Positions 12,920 through 22,906 of a stretch of DNA of 64,000 nucleotides are shown piece by piece. The stretch lies in sequence record MN709127.1. The stretch is one strand, 5' to 3'. Each line of letters begins with the position of its first letter. Positions within the stretch are counted from its first letter, which is position 1. Both the position numbers and the translations under genes were made by a program. Origin of the DNA: Escherichia phage Ec_Makalu_002. The notes below the pieces were generated by a model. The model was not told the DNA's origin, did not search any database, and saw only the letters and a program-made list of their open reading frames with translations.

Positions 12920-13398
12920 GCTAAATCATTGCAATATTTTAGTGCCTTAGTTTGAAACTCTGCGCTGTTAAGTTCTTCATAACGGTCATAATCACCGTTT
13001 AATGCTGCCTTTCTTGCTTCTTGTTCTATCTGCATGTCAGACATGATAATACAACGATCCCGCGCTTTCATCTTCTCAAGTTGTATAGACTCTTCTTGTT
13101 GCTTGCGCAATTCTTCTTGATGCTTCTTTTCTTCTCGTGCTTTCTCTTCCCGCGCTTCTTTGATTGCATCTTTGAACATCTGCGTTTGTGGTGCTAAACC
13201 AACTTTAACGCGATCCACGTCTCGACGTTCCATTTTAGAAATAAAACATGATTCGATCTGGTCATCGCTTGCATATGCTGCTTTACATTCACGAAGCAAG
13301 AAAACCGGATCTGATTTAGCATTCATCATAGCTTCCATGTTAGTACAACCAGTAAGCATGAATGCAGCCGCAAGACCAATCAGTTTAATCATTTTCAT
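12913..13398 (-). CDS. predicted lipoprotein (signal peptide, lipobox LTGC), coiled-coil rich
   Basis: MKMIKLIGLAAAFMLTGC N-terminus; Lys/Glu-rich middle. Confidence 0.55.
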   Translation of the reverse strand: MKMIKLIGLAAAFMLTGCTNMEAMMNAKSDPVFLLRECKAAYASDDQIESCFISKMERRDVDRVKVGLAPQTQMFKDAIKEAREEKAREEKKHQEELRKQQEESIQLEKMKARDRCIIMSDMQIEQEARKAALNGDYDRYEELNSAEFQTKALKYCNDLAK

Positions 13399-14219
13399 TT
13401 AGTCACCTCACCGAAAATTGTAAATTGTCTACGATTCTCATCGCCGAAAGATTCTACTACGTCGTTTACCTTGATGCAAGTCCCGCGCGGTAAAATTACT
13501 TCACATTCGCAAGGATTCCATGCAATAGACCCAACAACAAAACCTTTATGATCTTTTACGTCAATTACCCATGATACATTACAAGAATGTTGCATCTTTC
13601 CGGTCATTGATTCATATCGATTCTCACAATAAAGGCTAGTGCTGTTTGAAAGCCATCCTCCAAAGATGATCGGTGTCATGCTGGTCGATACAAAGTTTTT
13701 AAAGGTAAATTCCTTATCTTCAATAATACGCTCTATTGTCTGAATGTCAAGATGTTGACCGCGATAAAGAGTACCGTTTAACTTTTCGGTTTTATCCATG
13801 ACACAATCCATCAAATCGACAATCTCTGATATCTCATCGGTCATGTCTTCTTCCCCTAAGAGAGCACCATTTACCCATTCGTATTGTTCAGACACATAAT
13901 CGCAGATTGCATTATATTCTGCTGGGGTTATGTTGTTATGTTTGTAATGTTTGAATACATTATCTCCAAAATCTTCGGAATGTACTTCATACATCACATT
14001 AATGATTTTCTTGACAAATCCATAATCTTGCGTTTCTTGCTCAAGGAAACGGATAACTTTCACGTAATCATCAAAGTTAATATGATCGCTGATCATTTCA
14101 GTGATCATGTAACCATTAATCCCCTCAATGCCATATGTTTCGATGTAATTATCCATACGTTCCATCATTGATTCGCGTGATTCTTCGGAAAGGCGAAAAT
14201 CCTGTAATTTCTTGAACAT
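13395..14219 (-). CDS. ADP-ribosyltransferase, Alt-like paralog
   Basis: LYRG...FVSTS...ECEVILPRG (R-S-ExE motifs) parallel the ART region of adjacent Alt. Confidence 0.7.
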   Translation of the reverse strand: MFKKLQDFRLSEESRESMMERMDNYIETYGIEGINGYMITEMISDHINFDDYVKVIRFLEQETQDYGFVKKIINVMYEVHSEDFGDNVFKHYKHNNITPAEYNAICDYVSEQYEWVNGALLGEEDMTDEISEIVDLMDCVMDKTEKLNGTLYRGQHLDIQTIERIIEDKEFTFKNFVSTSMTPIIFGGWLSNSTSLYCENRYESMTGKMQHSCNVSWVIDVKDHKGFVVGSIAWNPCECEVILPRGTCIKVNDVVESFGDENRRQFTIFGEVTK

Positions 14220-14298: not shown

Positions 14299-16350
14299 TT
14301 ACATTTTAAATTTATCCGGCATAGCGTCTACAGACACAAGATCAGCGATAAGCTGACGTAGAGTTGCCTTATCTGCTTTCTTACGTTCGGTTTTAGCTTC
14401 GGTAATGAAGCTGGAGAAAGACAGGTCAGAAGCAGGTTTAACAACACCTTCACGGATGAATGCATCACCGTCCGCGATCATCTCACCAGATTCTTGTAAT
14501 GCTGCCAGTTCATTTTTGTTCATAATATGTGCCTCGATGTAATAAGTTTCTTGTGAATCCGTCGATGCCGTAGCACGAGTTACCGTATCAAAGGATAACA
14601 CAACACCGCGAGGAAGTAAAATCTCGCATTCTTTGTAAGCAAATGCTTTGTTACCTACTGGCAATACAGGGATGTTTTCCGCGCCAGCAATGGAGAAAGC
14701 AACATTAGCGCCACCTTCACCGCGAGATCCCGCCATAGAATCAACACCAGCAACGGCACTAGCCACGTTTGCATTCCAGCCACCAAAAATATTAGGTGCA
14801 AGGGAAGTGCTCACATAGTTTTTAAAGTAAAACGCTTTTTGCTTACGTGCAGTTTCCCACATTTGCGACCGGAAGTCCATACCACGATACAAGATAGTAC
14901 CTGGATCAAGTTTAACACCATAGTTAGCAAATGCGTTATCCAGTGCATCACACATCTTGACCAATTCTTCTGGGTCTGCGATGCCTTCAAACTCTTCCAG
15001 CTTACGGTCGGTTAGGAAGTTGTTCATATTGATGTATGCTGCATCCGCATATTCGCTCAACACAAAACCTTCCGCGCCAGGCAGATCAAGATCAATATCT
15101 GCCATCATTTCACCCATGTTGCTAGCAATTGCTTCAAACATACCGGAAGCAACATTACGCAGGGCATCGGTTTTAATCTGCGTGATGTGACTACGCAGCA
15201 TTTCAGCTTTTACATCTGCTGGCATAGACTGGTCGACGCGATCCATTGCCAGGGCGGTGATCTTGTTTTCGAATACTTCCTCGCTCATGATTTCTTTTAA
15301 GCGTTTGATTGATGCTGCGATGACTTCCGCAGACAACGGATCATATTGATCCTGAACTTTTACCAGTTCGCTTACTGCATATTTTGCATCGGCTTCGCTT
15401 TCAAAAATAGTACGCATGAAACCATAGCGAGTGATAATATCACTTGTCCAGTCATTCAGAGAACGGGCGGTTGAACGTTCTAAGGCTTGACGGTCAATCA
15501 GAGTATTAAACTGTTTCTTAGGTTCTGCTTCGGTGATATCTTCTTCCGGTTTAAGATTAATTTTTTCTGGATGATTCACATAGTCGCTGTTATAGGTCGC
15601 TTGAGTTTTCAGCATTTCTTCTTTAGTCAAACGAGATTTAGCCGCTACGCGTTGTTCTGCTTCCGCGTTTCGTTCTTCTTCCGACACAAGACTAGCCGCA
15701 TACGCCTCATCTTTAGTCAGAGATTCACCAGTAGCCTTAGATACCCAGCGATCACCTAAATCACTTTCTACTTTAGTGAACAGGGATTCATCGAGTTTAA
15801 TCCCTTTAATCTTATCAATCGCCATCCCGCGACGTTTGACAACAACTAAAGCGATCTTTTTGCTGGTCATTACTTCCTGCTGGAATACTTCAAACTTCGG
15901 TGTACGACGCACCAAACGCTCTATAACGCGCTTAACCAGTTCGGTCTTACCTTTCATGCGGGATACGTTAAAACGGAACATAACAGCGTCTAATTGCGCT
16001 TTACGGGCTGTTTCCATGACCACATCAAAAGCACTTGACATAACTGCAATCGGGTTATCTCCTAGACCATTTTTAAGCTGTACAATACGACCGCTTTTGT
16101 TCATTTCGCACAGTACAACATGTGCGGTCTTGTCACCCATACGAATGATTTTAGGTGTTTTGTTGGTGAAGTTACAAAGACGGACAATCACATCTTTATC
16201 GCGTGTCTGTACTGCAAAAAGCTGTTTAGGATTCTGCTTAGGCTTTAAGCACTGTACCGGAGCAATACTGCCAAAGTTTTCTTCCTCTTCCGTCAACAGC
16301 CATTTCTCGAAAGATTCAATCATTAGATCGTCGATTTCTAAGTTAAACAT
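14299..16350 (-). CDS. alt: Alt ADP-ribosyltransferase (head-packaged)
   Basis: 683 aa (T4 Alt about 682); ART motifs YRG/STS/ECEILLPRG; position after gene 54. Confidence 0.85.
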   Translation of the reverse strand: MFNLEIDDLMIESFEKWLLTEEEENFGSIAPVQCLKPKQNPKQLFAVQTRDKDVIVRLCNFTNKTPKIIRMGDKTAHVVLCEMNKSGRIVQLKNGLGDNPIAVMSSAFDVVMETARKAQLDAVMFRFNVSRMKGKTELVKRVIERLVRRTPKFEVFQQEVMTSKKIALVVVKRRGMAIDKIKGIKLDESLFTKVESDLGDRWVSKATGESLTKDEAYAASLVSEEERNAEAEQRVAAKSRLTKEEMLKTQATYNSDYVNHPEKINLKPEEDITEAEPKKQFNTLIDRQALERSTARSLNDWTSDIITRYGFMRTIFESEADAKYAVSELVKVQDQYDPLSAEVIAASIKRLKEIMSEEVFENKITALAMDRVDQSMPADVKAEMLRSHITQIKTDALRNVASGMFEAIASNMGEMMADIDLDLPGAEGFVLSEYADAAYINMNNFLTDRKLEEFEGIADPEELVKMCDALDNAFANYGVKLDPGTILYRGMDFRSQMWETARKQKAFYFKNYVSTSLAPNIFGGWNANVASAVAGVDSMAGSRGEGGANVAFSIAGAENIPVLPVGNKAFAYKECEILLPRGVVLSFDTVTRATASTDSQETYYIEAHIMNKNELAALQESGEMIADGDAFIREGVVKPASDLSFSSFITEAKTERKKADKATLRQLIADLVSVDAMPDKFKM

Positions 16351-16881: not shown

Positions 16882-16913
16882 GTTTGATTCTCCTTTCGTT
16901 TCGGTATGTGTGC

Positions 16914-16942
16914 AGTATAGGGGATCGCCGATCCCCTGTCAA
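16914..16942 (-). promoter_or_regulatory. sigma70-like early promoter with palindromic spacer (TTGACA-GGGGATCGGCGATCCCC-TATACT)
   Basis: Consensus -35, 17-nt GC-rich palindromic spacer with two GATC, -10 TATACT. Confidence 0.5.
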
Positions 16943-16949
16943 CAACTTT

Positions 16950-17504
16950 TTAGTTATTTTTTAATTGCTCATCTTGCAATAATGCAATCACATGCTGGCG
17001 ATGTTCTTCCGATTGAGGAACACCGAAAAAGTTTGTTTTGTAGAAATACTCTAATCGGTCTTCTCGTGTGCTCTCTTCCATCATGATCGCGGGTAGTCCA
17101 AGATTTCGGAAACGTCGCTTTTCTGCTGGCGTAAAATCACTGTAATACAACATAGAATCATCATTACCAGCAATGCTAAACTCATCCTTCATAAAGGAGA
17201 ATATTGCGTTTAAACGCTGTTTACCGTCCACGATTTCGATCTCATAGCGAGAGCCATCATCAATCTTAGCCATTGCGATAGCACCAACCGGAAAATCATT
17301 AATCAGGTTTTCGATAAACATACGTTTGTTTTCGGTGTCCCATACCAAAGGACGCTGATAATCTGGGTTCATGTTGATATAGCCATCTTCTAACCACGCC
17401 TCATAAACAGAGATGACAAAGTTTTTAGTATTGGTATAGTAACGGCGTTTAGGCGTTAAACGGTTCATGTTATAGTCTCCTGAATGGATCATCACGTAAA
17501 TCAA
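16950..17504 (-). CDS. DUF262 / ParB-like nuclease-domain protein (GmrS N-terminal-like), short form
   Basis: PDYQRPLVWD and DGKQRLNAI motifs; track start is TTG, ATG at about 17468 with AGGAG RBS more likely (172 aa). Confidence 0.65.
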   Translation of the reverse strand: MIYVMIHSGDYNMNRLTPKRRYYTNTKNFVISVYEAWLEDGYINMNPDYQRPLVWDTENKRMFIENLINDFPVGAIAMAKIDDGSRYEIEIVDGKQRLNAIFSFMKDEFSIAGNDDSMLYYSDFTPAEKRRFRNLGLPAIMMEESTREDRLEYFYKTNFFGVPQSEEHRQHVIALLQDEQLKNN

Positions 17505-17802
17505 TATCTTTTAAGAACTCATCCCATGAATGGCGGATAATGTTCTTAATTCTCCAGATAAGCGCAGGGATTGAACGCTCTCCCATCTGGAAGTAAGGAT
17601 CATATGATCCATATGCCCAATATGCTACTACAATTCCACAATCGGCGCAATAATATTCTATTTCACTTGCTGGCGACCAAAGTCCATCAATATGATCACG
17701 GATCTTGCTTTCGATGTTATGGCTATGGCAATCAGGGCAACGGATGCAATGACCTTGTTTATCGTAATTTGACGTTAGCGAATACTTAAACAATCTCATC
17801 AT
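17470..17802 (-). CDS. zinc-ribbon protein (two CxxC pairs)
   Basis: CIRCPDC ... CADCG; ATGA-coupled to upstream gene. Confidence 0.5.
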   Translation of the reverse strand: MMRLFKYSLTSNYDKQGHCIRCPDCHSHNIESKIRDHIDGLWSPASEIEYYCADCGIVVAYWAYGSYDPYFQMGERSIPALIWRIKNIIRHSWDEFLKDIDLRDDPFRRL

Positions 17803-18515
17803 AGATCCTTATTGGCTTCAAATACTGCCTTTGCGAATCCTCGCGGGGTAAGTGACCTGATAGTCTTTGTTCTGGTTCCTTTCCCGCCTAGCTTAGAATG
17901 CTGTTTACTGTACCCTTTATTAATCTGCAACGGTTTCTTTTCTGGCATTATAAAGCCTTGTCCGGTCCATAAGCAAGTCTTTTTCGGGTACATATCACGG
18001 GCGGCAATATACTCAGGAAACGTAGGATGCTTATCATCTTCCGGCAAATAACCGCCATATTCCCACGGATGGAACATGTAATCAGGCTTACGCCACATGC
18101 TAGAGATAACGCTTACAGGATTCTCTATCATGTAGGGAACTCCTAGCCATTCACCCAAATAAGCGGTTATTTTAGCTGCCCTTACATCATGAACTTGAAT
18201 TAATGGTCCTTGTTCTCGTTTCTTTCGTTCAAAGTGCGCAGCGCCACTAACAGCTAAATTGGTGCATGGTGGGAATGCAAAGATAATATCCGGTTTCCCC
18301 CATTCAAGGTCCATTGCTCTTTCCAGCCAATTTAAATCAATCCATGTGTTTACATATGTAATGTTTGGATGTTCAAATCGGGTATTATATTTTTTGTATG
18401 TACCGTGGTCGCCATCGTCAGCATTAAAGCAGATCACCTTATGACCTGCTTTAGCCCATTCTAACCCCATTATCCCCGATCCGTCAAAGTTGCAGAATAT
18501 TAATTTTTGTTTCAT
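17799..18515 (-). CDS. C5-cytosine-methyltransferase-like protein (SAM-dependent MTase fold, no obvious target-recognition domain)
   Basis: Motif I-like FDGSGIMG, motif IV-like FPPC with catalytic Cys, motif VI-like IENP; 238 aa. Confidence 0.5.
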   Translation of the reverse strand: MKQKLIFCNFDGSGIMGLEWAKAGHKVICFNADDGDHGTYKKYNTRFEHPNITYVNTWIDLNWLERAMDLEWGKPDIIFAFPPCTNLAVSGAAHFERKKREQGPLIQVHDVRAAKITAYLGEWLGVPYMIENPVSVISSMWRKPDYMFHPWEYGGYLPEDDKHPTFPEYIAARDMYPKKTCLWTGQGFIMPEKKPLQINKGYSKQHSKLGGKGTRTKTIRSLTPRGFAKAVFEANKDL

Positions 18516-18757
18516 ATACGCCCCTTTAACCCAACACAGATTTTAGAAGGTTCTTTGCCGTGCCACATTAAGTAAATTCCGTTAATGCGTCCTTGTTTTG
18601 TATATGATTCTTTTCTGATCTTCTTATAGTGTCGTGCTTCCTCAGCCGATTGTTTAGAATGTCGATCATAAAGGAAGAGGAACAAAGGCCAACCATTAGC
18701 GGCCTTAATGCAGTTATTCAAAAATTCCTTATTTCGTTTAATTAATTTTCTTTTCAC
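18512..18757 (-). CDS. hypothetical basic protein (81 aa)
   Basis: ORF track; apparent GTG start overlapping upstream stop. Confidence 0.4.
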   Translation of the reverse strand: MKRKLIKRNKEFLNNCIKAANGWPLFLFLYDRHSKQSAEEARHYKKIRKESYTKQGRINGIYLMWHGKEPSKICVGLKGRI

Positions 18758-19005
18758 GCTGCCCCCATTGGTTTGATAGTAACAGAATCTAAAAGACCTT
18801 TGTTAGCCAGTTCGCGGCAAGTTTTCAGATCCGCAACTTCCCAGCCAGCCGCAATAAGGTTATCAATGAGGCTGTTAGCAACTTCTTCGCTCATGAAAGA
18901 GCACTGTTTGCCGATGGTGTAGCGTACACGCTGTAATTTCAGTTTACGGAAGCCTTTAACGTTCAGGTCTTTAGCGATTTTCTTTGCGGTTTCGATGTTA
19001 GCCAT
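18754..19005 (-). CDS. hypothetical protein (83 aa), first gene of the 5-gene operon
   Basis: ATG with RBS and promoter just upstream. Confidence 0.5.
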   Translation of the reverse strand: MANIETAKKIAKDLNVKGFRKLKLQRVRYTIGKQCSFMSEEVANSLIDNLIAAGWEVADLKTCRELANKGLLDSVTIKPMGAA

Positions 19006-19045
19006 TGTTTGATTCTCCTAAGTGGTATCTCGTCTTGATGGTTGT

Positions 19046-19074
19046 ATTGTAGGGGAGTTATCCTCCCCTGTCAA
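19046..19074 (-). promoter_or_regulatory. sigma70-like early promoter for the 19005-16950 operon (TTGACA-GGGGAGGATAACTCCCC-TACAAT)
   Basis: -35/-10 at 17-nt spacing; palindromic spacer; conserved leader. Confidence 0.5.
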
Positions 19075-19088
19075 CACTTTTTATAAAA

Positions 19089-19256
19089 TTATTTGTTAAT
19101 TTCTGGTGCGTTGCTAGGATAGTAACCTTCTTTAACTCCGAGGTATTTCGCAACCATCCCTACAATCTTCTGTGCTACTACAATGTCAAATTTCAGATAA
19201 TCTTCGCCGTGGGTTTCAATGATATATGCTTCACATGCTGCTTTAGTCTCGAACAT
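19089..19256 (-). CDS. hypothetical small protein (55 aa), paralog A of the 22372-22539 gene
   Basis: Hand-translated MFETKAACEAYIIETHGEDYLKFDIVVAQKIVGMVAKYLGVKEGYYPSNAPEINK. Confidence 0.5.
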   Translation of the reverse strand: MFETKAACEAYIIETHGEDYLKFDIVVAQKIVGMVAKYLGVKEGYYPSNAPEINK

Positions 19257-20080: not shown

Positions 20081-20536
20081 TCATTTAGACAAATAATCAT
20101 TCAGTGCAATCCGGTCGGCATGTTCCGGCGTTACATCAATCGCAATCACTTTAACGCGTGCTTTCTTGCGACCTGGGTTTTCTCGTAACCAGTGCTCATG
20201 ACCGTGAACATTTTTATACTGCGATGCTTCTTCGAAGGTACGGATCGGACCAGGGTAATCAGCGTAAAGGATCTCTAGGTCATCGGTGATGTAAAAATAT
20301 ACGTTGTAATTACTGTTCTCTAGCTTAAGCAGAGACTTTCGGAACATTGGGAGATTTTCGCGGGTAAATTCAAAAGTAATATCTTTCATAGTATTATCCT
20401 CAATAGTTGGATGAAAAGGGGGCTTAACGCCCCATATATTAAAACAGTCCTTCCTGTACACCGTAGTAGAGTTCGTCGCTGATAATTTCATTAATGCGAC
20501 GGTGTGCATATTCCTGATTTGCGAAGTTGTCAGCAA
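20081..20536 (-). CDS. His-motif family small protein, member 1
   Basis: YFYITDDL ... HGHEHW ... VIAIDV; ATG at about 20389 with GAGGA RBS more likely (102 aa). Confidence 0.5.
   Translation of the reverse strand: MLTTSQIRNMHTVALMKLSATNSTTVYRKDCFNIWGVKPPFHPTIEDNTMKDITFEFTRENLPMFRKSLLKLENSNYNVYFYITDDLEILYADYPGPIRTFEEASQYKNVHGHEHWLRENPGRKKARVKVIAIDVTPEHADRIALNDYLSK
20414..20433 (-). terminator. terminator-like hairpin
   Basis: GGGGCGTTAAGCCCC followed by CTTTTC on minus strand. Confidence 0.4.
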
Positions 20537-20809: not shown

Positions 20810-21103
20810 TTATAAAATAATTTTTTGATATTTTTCTATGATGTTTGTGTAATCCACATCAACCGCTATCACCGTTGCTTCGAATCCACCGTTTAGCCAA
20901 TGGCTATGGTCATGATCGTGAAAGAAACCAAGACCAGTACGAAGACCTTCTTTATATTCGGCGCGTACATTTAGATCATCATCGATAAACAGATAAAACC
21001 ATGAATTTTTACTAGGATTGATGATACAACCTTTCAGATTAGGGAGAATATCACGACTAAGAATAAACTTATCACCTACTTTGAACATAATATTAGTCCT
21101 CAC
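20810..21103 (-). CDS. His-motif family small protein, member 2
   Basis: FYLFIDDDL ... HDHDHSHW ... VIAVDV; ATG at about 21088 more likely. Confidence 0.5.
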   Translation of the reverse strand: MRTNIMFKVGDKFILSRDILPNLKGCIINPSKNSWFYLFIDDDLNVRAEYKEGLRTGLGFFHDHDHSHWLNGGFEATVIAVDVDYTNIIEKYQKIIL

Positions 21104-21494
21104 TTATAAGGTCAAACCAATTGTTTTTCGCATAATGCTTAATGCGTGCTTGATCTGCTTCCGCTGGTGATAGATTCCATGCAACCACTACAACTTCTGA
21201 CGCGTCGTCATCCGTTTCTGATACCCAATGATTGTGATTCATACAGTTATTTGCGATCGAGTGAGCAAATGATTTCATCACTGGAGACGTATAATCATAG
21301 TAACGGATTTTCAGATTTTCATCAACATACAAGTAGATCGTATAAGGTTTATATTCAGTAACCAGTAACAGACAGTTACGCAATTCTGGGAAAATCTTTT
21401 TAGTTAATTTCATTTTATAATCCTCGGTCGCGGCTATAGTACACGGTACGCCATACAATTTCATGTTTCGTGTCGCTCCAGCACACGATCTCAT
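21093..21494 (-). CDS. His-motif family small protein, member 3
   Basis: IYLYVDENL ... NHNHW ... VVVVAW; ATG at about 21413 more likely (106 aa). Confidence 0.5.
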   Translation of the reverse strand: MRSCAGATRNMKLYGVPCTIAATEDYKMKLTKKIFPELRNCLLLVTEYKPYTIYLYVDENLKIRYYDYTSPVMKSFAHSIANNCMNHNHWVSETDDDASEVVVVAWNLSPAEADQARIKHYAKNNWFDLISED

Positions 21495-21654
21495 TTACTC
21501 TTAAATCTTTGTTATCAACAAAAGATGAACATTGTGACGCTTCTTTCATCATTTTATCTGCTGTTTTCTCATCAAATACAGCACAGATTTCTTTATACAC
21601 TCGATAATCTTTGAATTGACTCTGGATACCCATAATTAACACCATTCCAACCAA
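21415..21654 (-). CDS. hypothetical small protein, tandem paralog of 21593-21850
   Basis: Shared motif FKDY.VYKEI...F(D/A)EK.A(D/E)KMM(K/E)(E/D)AS.C.SF; likely start about 21633. Confidence 0.45.
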   Translation of the reverse strand: MVGMVLIMGIQSQFKDYRVYKEICAVFDEKTADKMMKEASQCSSFVDNKDLRVNEIVCWSDTKHEIVWRTVYYSRDRGL

Positions 21655-21850
21655 TTGTTTTTGAGAAAACGTTTATCCACTGTTGAGTGTAGCATGTTTC
21701 TTTCCATGATACAATACGAGTAGAATAATGGTTTTTGTTTCCAGAAAAGGACGGGCATTTTGATGCATCTTCCATCATCTTTTCGGCGAACTCCGCGTCA
21801 TATACCCGCAGGATCTGTTGATATGCTTTATAATCTTTAAATTTGCTCAT
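21593..21850 (-). CDS. hypothetical small protein, tandem paralog of 21415-21654
   Basis: ORF track; see paralog. Confidence 0.45.
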   Translation of the reverse strand: MSKFKDYKAYQQILRVYDAEFAEKMMEDASKCPSFSGNKNHYSTRIVSWKETCYTQQWINVFSKTIGWNGVNYGYPESIQRLSSV

Positions 21851-22115
21851 AATTGTTAACTACCTTATCAGCTTCTTTTATTGTTTTTACATCAACTGCG
21901 ATAATCCGTAAAGGTTCGTCGAAGGTCCACCAGTGGTCATGAATATCAGCTTGTGATTTATCACCAAAGGAATCACGAATATCATTTTTACATTTATAGC
22001 TAATATGGCCTTCATAGTCAACATAAAGGTAATTATCGAAAATCGGCGTTTTTAAGATCATACCGAAAAATCTTTCTTTGTGTGTCTTATCAAGTGTTGC
22101 AGTAATTCGCATCAT
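21837..22115 (-). CDS. His-motif family small protein, member 4
   Basis: YLYVDYEG ... HDHWW ... IIAVDV; ATG with GAGGA RBS. Confidence 0.55.
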   Translation of the reverse strand: MMRITATLDKTHKERFFGMILKTPIFDNYLYVDYEGHISYKCKNDIRDSFGDKSQADIHDHWWTFDEPLRIIAVDVKTIKEADKVVNNYEQI

Positions 22116-22371: not shown

Positions 22372-22695
22372 TTATTTGTTAATTTCCGGTGCGTTGCTCG
22401 GATAGTAACCTTCTTTAACACCCAGATATTTTGCAACCATTCCGGTGATCTTCTGTGCTACTACGATATCGAATTTCAGGTAGTCTTCACCGTGGTTTGC
22501 TACAATGTATGCTTCGCATTCTGCTTTAGTCTGGAACATTTTTGATTCTCCTATATCTCGTTGGTATGTGTGCATTATAGGGGATCGGTGATCCCCTGTC
22601 AACAACTTTTTATGATTTTTCTTTATATGCGTATTGAATAAATTGGTCCGCCACTTCGTCGGCTTTTTCGGGTTTGACTTCTGACGCCAGGACAA
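22372..22695 (-). CDS. hypothetical small protein, paralog B of the 19089-19256 gene
   Basis: Upstream part of track ORF is read-through of the leader (MHTY..GES); real gene probably 22372-22539 (55 aa, 49/55 identical to paralog A). Confidence 0.5.
   Translation of the reverse strand: MSWRQKSNPKKPTKWRTNLFNTHIKKNHKKLLTGDHRSPIMHTYQRDIGESKMFQTKAECEAYIVANHGEDYLKFDIVVAQKITGMVAKYLGVKEGYYPSNAPEINK
22574..22602 (-). promoter_or_regulatory. sigma70-like early promoter (TTGACA-GGGGATCACCGATCCCC-TATAAT)
   Basis: Consensus hexamers, 17-nt palindromic spacer. Confidence 0.5.
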
Positions 22696-22906
22696 TAGCT
22701 AGATCGGTTTCGTCGTTCCCGTCATACCAATGATTATGAGTGTCTTTTTCTTTGATATAGAATGAGTCATTTGGAGTTGGACGACAATATACGTCTAAAT
22801 TCTCGTCGATGTAAAAGATCCAATCTTCATAAAGAATAACCGTATTAGCAAGGTTCTTATTACCTTCAACGAAAGGTTCGGTTACAAACAAATCAGTACG
22901 TTCCAT
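22610..22906 (-). CDS. His-motif family small protein, member 5
   Basis: WIFYIDENL ... THNHW ... AIVLASEV. Confidence 0.55.
   Translation of the reverse strand: MERTDLFVTEPFVEGNKNLANTVILYEDWIFYIDENLDVYCRPTPNDSFYIKEKDTHNHWYDGNDETDLAIVLASEVKPEKADEVADQFIQYAYKEKS

Follow-up and report, generated by a model that had tools for sequence, protein, structure and literature searches.

What does a protein of only 238 residues, with unusual versions of the C5-cytosine-methyltransferase motifs, do in a T4-like phage? This is the question raised by the present locus of the window (the whole 64,000-nucleotide stretch of Escherichia phage Ec_Makalu_002 analysed here). The original prediction took the phage to be of the hmC type, in which a canonical C5 DNA methyltransferase (MTase) would be unexpected, and proposed that the protein might instead act on the host, on RNA or through a different C5 chemistry.

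Open reading frame and catalytic motifs

The ORF listing of the window gives a minus-strand open reading frame at 17799..18515, with an ATG start and 238 amino acids, at the same coordinates and of the same length as had been predicted, and the motif I-, IV- and VI-like strings (FDGSGIMG, FPPCT and IENP) are all read directly from the DNA. The gene and its motifs are located as follows.

17799..18515, minus strand: coding sequence of the short Dcm-like DNA C5-cytosine methyltransferase, orthologue of RB49p189 (ORF, PHROG 757 and AlphaFold2 fold)
18465..18488, minus strand: motif I-like SAM-binding loop FDGSGIMG, residues 10-17 (read from the sequence)
18261..18275, minus strand: motif IV FPPCT, residues 81-85, with the predicted nucleophile Cys84 (conservation, K42 alignment)
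18117..18125, minus strand: motif VI ENP, residues 131-133 (IENP, residues 130-133), with the predicted N3-protonating Glu131 (conservation, K42 alignment)
17967..17990, minus strand: Y176-x-K178-K179-T180-x-x-W183 block, candidate motif VIII equivalent and DNA/cytosine contact (Y176, K178, T180 and W183 invariant)
17811..17858, minus strand: C-terminal R220-S-L-T-P-R-G-F-A...A-N235, motif IX-like, running into the terminal helix (conservation)

Conservation was assessed in an alignment of 63 diverse family members, 33-64% identical to the window protein. Residues C84, G91, E131, P133, P150, Y176, K178, T180, W183, P191 and R220 are invariant in this alignment, and the window protein keeps every one of them. 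At motif IV, C84 is present in 63/63 members, P82 in 60/63 and T85 in 58/63, the Cys being followed by Thr and not by Gln, while at motif VI both E131 and P133 are found in 63/63 and N132 in 62/63, with Pro replacing the canonical Val in all 63. Since P-P-C-T and E-N-P are conserved throughout the alignment, they represent the normal motif forms of the family and not local oddities.

Motif I is degenerate. Its family consensus is L-(F/Y)-D-x-(S/T)-G-x-(M/A) (63 members), and G14 alone among the glycines of the canonical FxGxG is conserved (53/63); in HMM alignments, which are non-significant on their own, the loop falls on motif I of DNMT2 and E. coli Dcm. Position 31, in motif II, is Asp in 55/63 members and Asn in the window protein, as it is in the K42-type enzyme described below.

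In the C-terminal half, the Y176-W183 block is a candidate equivalent of motif VIII (canonically QxRxR), and the R220-S-L-T-P-R segment one of the canonical motif IX 'RxLTxRE', which it resembles: R220 is invariant, S221, T223, P224, G226 and A230 are conserved in at least 85% of the members and N235 in 49/63. No separate GN-type motif X is evident in the window protein or in the 63-member alignment, which has only the A-N235 pair at the C-terminus. The two blocks lie about 40 residues apart, with no large target-recognition domain (TRD) between them, and the family varies most in the W183-R220 stretch. The absence of an evident TRD holds for a canonical large domain, but a compact, highly conserved stretch is present at approximately residues 140-219.

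Family membership and annotation

The window protein matches PHROG 757 ('DNA methyltransferase') over residues 1-237 (E 2.1e-90), well beyond a chance resemblance. With tblastn, 1,524 phage records gave homologues, among them Dhillonvirus, Drexlerviridae, Webervirus, Vequintavirus and phAPEC8-like phages, and HMMER run exhaustively over 1.84 billion representatives gave 1,161 clusters at 50% identity (E<=1e-3). Nearly all of these members have 200-260 residues, which makes the short build the norm for the family, and the window protein shares its single-domain architecture of about 210-260 residues with the invariant C (PPCT), E (ENP), YxKxT, W and R (SxTP). To our knowledge, family members of around 235 residues are among the shortest C5 DNA methyltransferases known.

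The family has been overlooked by Pfam and NCBIfam. PF00145 scores the window protein below its gathering threshold (13.9 bits vs 22) and only over the N-terminal third (residues 10-100), with just 7/63 family members matched even weakly, and no NCBIfam model matches the protein. Searching PDB sequences with phmmer gave no match for the window protein, and hmmsearch with the family profile gave nothing significant, the top methyltransferase match being DNMT2 (E 0.41). The hhalign comparison of the family with E. coli Dcm is also non-significant (E 0.33), although it pairs the ENP of the window protein with the ENV of Dcm; as it spans motifs I-VI only, it is of no use for mapping motifs VIII-X. 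We found no solved structure for the family, and how so small a protein reads its DNA site is the main remaining interest of this minimal architecture.

At the nucleotide level, megablast of positions 16900-19100 matched 63 phage records of the genus Krischvirus (Straboviridae), 56 of them with at least 80% query coverage, headed by Escherichia phage Ec_Makalu_003 (100% identity) and including RB49 (97.5%). RefSeq lists the RB49 orthologue, RB49p189, as 'DNA methyltransferase', and other Krischvirus records (97.5-100% nucleotide identity) label the gene 'Dcm', 'putative methyltransferase', 'putative C-5 cytosine DNA methylase' or 'DNA methyltransferase'; likewise, every krischvirus covered by a survey of Danish coliphages was noted to have a methyltransferase. 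The gene thus has an annotation already, and the short phage DNA C5-cytosine methyltransferases to which its product belongs form a widespread family. The copies in the window, RB49 and TB34 differ by 14-15 synonymous and 2-5 non-synonymous substitutions (pN/pS 0.03-0.09).

Predicted fold

The AlphaFold2 model obtained from the family alignment (pLDDT 93, pTM 0.91) displays a C5-MTase fold. When it was compared with the PDB using Foldseek, ranks 1-29 were occupied by the catalytic domains of DNMT3A, DNMT3B and DNMT1 (best E 1.7e-8); this comparison had been suggested as a check of the original prediction, and it gave no indication of a non-MTase fold. The DNMT3A and DNMT3B domains differ from the window protein in being eukaryotic, CpG-specific and active as DNMT3-DNMT3L oligomers, and they are only 14-17% identical to it. 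Against predicted viral structures, models of the same family came first (TM 0.81-0.90), followed by other viral C5-MTases.

The ranking also bears on the suggestion of an RNA target. Named tRNA Dnmt2 enzymes score lower in the Foldseek comparison (10.3 and 9.9); EhMeth is itself a Dnmt2 homologue. Considering this order together with the homologue data presented below, we find a Dnmt2-type role for the protein, with m5C formed in tRNA or another RNA instead of in DNA, very hard to credit.

A fold similar to that of the short MTase was also observed inside proteins of 1,126-1,397 residues from uncultured phages (BFVD A0A6J5SE15_1 and A0A6J5NPY6_2; 24-26% identity, TM 0.62-0.64), one of them carrying a helicase annotation. 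Where the MTase gene stands alone, in Dhillonvirus and Drexlerviridae, a helicase gene lies beside it or nearby.

Homologues with experimental data

Two members of the family have been studied experimentally. In the Drexlerviridae phage K42, four out of four mutants that escaped retron Ec86 had lesions affecting a 711-bp dcm gene (bioRxiv 10.1101/2023.08.16.553469; Cell Rep 2024 43:114857). Expression of K42 Dcm raised the 5mC content of the msDNA as measured by LC-MS, a C82A/E128A/K175A/K176A mutant did not, and mutation of the CCTGG site in the msDNA stem abolished Ec86 defence (bioRxiv 10.1101/2023.08.16.553469). In that work C82 was altered jointly with three other residues to give the inactive quadruple mutant, and K175/K176, called substrate-binding on the basis of an AlphaFold model, were mutated only within it; similarly, the CCWGG assignment rests on the msDNA site mutation and not on mapping of the methylated base, in a host (MG1655) that has its own Dcm (bioRxiv 10.1101/2023.08.16.553469).

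We represented K42 Dcm by bas04_0049 of Warwickvirus FritzSarasin, read from an internal ATG (711 bp), whose residue numbering fits the paper and which carries C82, E128, K175 and K176 at the reported positions. The window protein is 56% identical to it over the full length (E 2e-94), with C82/E128/K175/K176 aligned to C84/E131/K178/K179. Both proteins share family and architecture (236 vs 238 residues), the motif II Asn, P-P-C-T, E-N-P and RSLTPRGFA. They differ in context, K42 being a siphovirus and not a T4-like myovirus, with small ORFs and a helicase as gene neighbours, and retron triggering and 5mC formation are shown for K42 only.

The second homologue is gp52 of Pantoea phage vB_PagS_AAS23 (235 residues), which is 51% identical to the window protein (E 7e-85). 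BLASTP detected no conserved domain in gp52, while HHpred identified a C5-MTase with 99.7% probability, and the virion DNA was reported to be Dcm-methylated from restriction digests with an enzyme panel that included EcoRII (PMC8004638). The routine conserved-domain search is blank for the window protein as well. AAS23 differs in its phage family and in its Pantoea host, which may have a Dcm whose methylation is seen in the digests, and the evidence is accordingly indirect. Taken together, the K42 and AAS23 data point to DNA 5mC at Dcm-type sites, with a possible contribution of host Dcm in both cases. E. coli Dcm itself, in contrast, has 472 residues, a large TRD and the motifs FPCQ and ENV where the window protein has FPPCT and ENP, and neither it nor M.EcoRII (PF00145) has significant sequence similarity to the window protein.

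These homologues also bear on a transfer other than that of a methyl group. CmoX of Synechococcus phage S-B43 (PDB 8yf3) is a GC-specific C5-carboxymethyltransferase of 333 residues (PMC12783734), which depends on Cx-SAM, on an Arg where motif X otherwise has Asn and usually on a CmoA encoded by the phage (PMC12783734). None of these requirements is seen for the window protein. Its conserved C-terminal Asn235 may occupy the motif X position where CmoX has the required Arg, and genes for cmoA, an amide ligase or a dioxygenase are missing from the annotation of the RB49 region that is syntenic with the window. Considering also that the product of K42 Dcm is 5mC, carboxymethyl transfer from Cx-SAM, taken together with the 5hmC route discussed in the next section, has in our opinion almost nothing to recommend it.

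DNA chemistry of krischviruses

The genes cited in favour of an hmC-type phage do exist: alt (14299-16350) adjoins the locus, and the syntenic RB49 record places cd and denA at a distance of about 10-15 kb. RB49, however, has neither the hydroxymethylase nor the beta-glucosyltransferase, and HpaII and NheI, which are both methylation-sensitive, cut its DNA (PMC4041780). A 2026 study found Krischvirus genomes to be devoid of homologues of the 5hmdCMP synthase and of glucosyltransferases (PMC13390438), and a third paper concurs that the hydroxymethylation and glucosylation genes are missing. In Krischvirus TB34, HPLC/MS showed canonical nucleosides only, with 'no detectable modified DNA' (PMC13390438). 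Because alt, cd and denA are all present in the cytosine-containing RB49 they are no indication of hmC, and since the DNA of RB49-type phages has ordinary cytosine, a C5 DNA methyltransferase is to be expected rather than puzzling. The observation was confirmed, and its interpretation is partly supported, the hmC premise being contradicted by these papers. An ordinary-cytosine genome is where an orphan methyltransferase is useful, and for the window itself little changes, the gene being a recognised, widely distributed orphan methyltransferase in a phage to which such an enzyme is suited.

The report of 'no modification' in TB34 was obtained from phage grown on dam+ dcm+ DH5alpha (PMC13390438). 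Full CCWGG methylation would change approximately 0.2% of the cytosines (27 sites in 64 kb). Given that nothing was reported despite this host, and the small fraction of cytosines concerned, the TB34 result is weak evidence.

Krischvirus SAP, on the other hand, was reported to contain 5hmdC and glucosyl-5hmdC, with no known pathway, while the 99.96% identical TB34 has plain cytosine (PMC13390438). Tequatrovirus TB37, which comes from the collection that also holds SAP, is described as having identical modifications, and SAP DNA was the least cut by BrxU (PMC13390438). TB34 and SAP are identical over a whole 2,202-bp stretch that includes the MTase gene and its cassette, and for this reason the gene was rejected as an explanation of the difference between them. 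Carry-over of a T4-like phage in SAP is a suspicion that should be excluded.

If a minimal, TRD-poor C5-transferase were the entry to a post-replicative 5hmC/glucosyl-5hmC route in some Krischvirus isolates, the bases of SAP could be explained in spite of the lack of a dCMP hydroxymethylase and of known glucosyltransferases. Such a route would require low sequence specificity followed by oxidase and transferase activities. The identity of the gene in TB34 and SAP argues against it, as does the need for a sequence-independent enzyme to replace all cytosines, and we consider it extremely improbable.

Site specificity and restriction-site statistics

In the 64-kb window CCWGG is about two-fold under-represented, with 27 sites observed vs 51-68 expected. 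It is nonetheless less depleted than CCSGG, GGCC, RCCGGY, YGGCCR and CTGCAG, whose counts in the window are listed below; plain CCGG (109) and GATC (342) are not depleted in positions 1-64000.

RCCGGY: 0 observed, 26-43 expected
YGGCCR: 1 observed, 13-31 expected
CTGCAG: 0 observed, 9-11 expected
CCSGG: 6 observed, 31-46 expected
GGCC: 32 observed, 74-101 expected

This avoidance of C-rich palindromes suggests an unmodified genome under selection from specific host restriction enzymes. The depletion of CCWGG is not what full protection would predict, and deamination of 5mC could also deplete the site. Site statistics were consequently discarded as a guide to specificity, the CCWGG depletion fitting either partial protection or loss by deamination.

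An active DNA C5-MTase with a specificity other than CCWGG, protecting against other restriction or BREX-like systems, would agree with this depletion, with the modest identity of the window protein to the two homologues with data (51-56%), with the variability of W183-R220 and with a K42 site that was deduced and not mapped. Against it, K42 and AAS23 are divergent members and both indicate Dcm-type sites, and the would-be DNA-contact segments (residues 141-156 and 174-191) are highly conserved among the window protein, the K42-type enzyme and AAS23. Furthermore, the cutting of RB49 DNA by HpaII (CCGG) and NheI (GCTAGC) means that these two sites are not blocked. We therefore regard a different specificity as rather unlikely, and a Dcm-type CCWGG site as the probable one.

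Gene cassette and early promoters

The MTase gene belongs to a unit of five genes, namely two small genes, the MTase, a zinc-ribbon gene and a DUF262 gene, located between PeSL elements at about 19074 and 16942.

19046..19074, minus strand: PeSL-type early promoter heading the five-gene cassette (TTGACA-N17-TACAAT with a GGGGAG...CTCCCC stem-loop in the spacer; sigma-70 match 11/12)
18754..19005, minus strand: cassette gene 1, 83 residues, PHROG 14908, orthologue of RB49p190
18512..18757, minus strand: cassette gene 2, 81 residues, PHROG 7065, orthologue of RB49p189.1
17470..17802, minus strand: zinc-ribbon protein of the cassette, 110 residues (weak Pfam Zn_Ribbon_TF match, PHROG 2993)
16950..17504, minus strand: DUF262 / GmrSD protein with the N-terminal domain only, last gene of the cassette (PF03235, E 5e-20)
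16914..16942, minus strand: next PeSL-type promoter, downstream of the cassette end (promoter scan, common module)
19700-19600, 19343-19250, 19099-19000, 16967-16880 and 16720-16630, minus strand: five PeSL-like intergenic modules

The stop codon of the 81-residue gene overlaps the MTase start (ATGA at 18512-18515), and the MTase stop overlaps the start of the zinc-ribbon gene in the same manner (ATGA at 17799-17802). The five intergenic regions on the coding strand carry a near-identical module consisting of AAAAAGTTGTTGACA, a spacer, a TATAAT-like element, ACACCCATACCGAAACGAA, GGAGAATCAAA and ATG. Each copy has an AT-rich leader and TTGACA-N17-TATAAT, and several have a G-rich stem-loop in the spacer, often GGGGATC...GATCCCC. 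PeSL elements are known from RB49 and phi1, where a part in the shuffling of gene cassettes within hyperplastic regions has been proposed for them (PMC4122927), and as judged from their sequence the five modules of the window match these published elements. As a PeSL promoter heads the cassette, early transcription by the host RNA polymerase is likely.

The cassette context is relevant to the view that the main target is not the phage genome but host DNA or msDNA, or that this is a nearly silent, shuffled cassette gene in Krischvirus. The PeSL-bounded location in a hyperplastic region known for horizontal shuffling would fit such a view, as would the virion DNA of TB34, without detectable modified nucleosides, and the methylation of host-encoded msDNA by K42 Dcm. 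Nevertheless, the TB34 assay is insensitive to methylation of about 0.2% of the cytosines, and the gene is kept in 56/63 Krischvirus records at no less than 95% identity and under strong purifying selection. Moreover, methylation of msDNA harms the phage, making it unlikely as the selected target. Overall, a nearly silent gene or a target outside the phage genome seems improbable to us.

The zinc-ribbon gene was considered as a specificity partner of the MTase and rejected: it adjoins the MTase in Krischvirus only, and where distant homologues occur, in 9g-like and other phages, no MTase lies beside them. The DUF262 protein, whose gene is the last of the cassette and overlaps its neighbour, corresponds to the N-terminal half of PHROG 1583 only, with the DGKQR motif and no nuclease half, and has 172-184 residues depending on the start, the shorter one being that of RB49 (172 residues). 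It amounts to half of a Type IV restriction enzyme, curiously carried by a phage beside a cytosine methyltransferase, and might be a decoy, an inhibitor or a ParB-like partner.

Proposed mechanism and role

The whole is best explained by an active SAM-dependent DNA C5-MTase of the short Dcm-like family, an explanation which, with its likely CCWGG site and anti-restriction role, we hold with good though not complete confidence. In the classical chemistry predicted for it, the enzyme would flip the target cytosine out of the DNA, Cys84 (P-P-C-T) would attack C6 and Glu131 (E-N-P) would protonate N3, with the methyl group passing from SAM to C5. The DNA would be read by the compact conserved module at approximately residues 140-220 (Y176, K178/K179, T180, W183 and R220) instead of a large TRD. 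Lying behind the PeSL early promoter in a five-gene cassette and translationally coupled to its neighbours, the MTase is expected to be made early by the host RNA polymerase, and it would methylate the replicating phage DNA and, incidentally, host DNA.

The likeliest site is the Dcm-type CCWGG, and the likeliest benefit would be to shield the cytosine-containing genome from 5mC-sensitive restriction by EcoRII-type enzymes. A cost is seen in relatives, in which such methylation can trigger retron Ec86; as one member of the family does so, carriage of the gene may help to predict which hosts can be infected.

Other features of the region

Upstream of the MTase cassette, small paralogous ORFs are scattered in the hyperplastic region (20081-20536, 20810-21103, 21093-21494, 21837-22115 and 22610-22906, minus strand), with 26-29% identity and pairwise E values from 1e-12 to 9e-4; they share H-x-H-W followed by (V/I)-A-(V/I)-D-V. 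A 55-residue ORF at 19089-19256 (minus strand) is 89% identical to the C-terminal 55 residues of ORF 22372-22695 (minus strand), and the adjoining ORFs 21415-21654 and 21593-21850 (minus strand) are 43% identical. The duplications at 19089/22372 and 21415/21593 are recent and consistent with PeSL-mediated cassette shuffling. Finally, two ADP-ribosyltransferase genes adjoin each other on the minus strand, Alt (683 residues, 14299-16350) and a 274-residue paralogue (13395-14219) that resembles the C-terminal domain of Alt, and both match Pfam ADPrib_exo_Tox.
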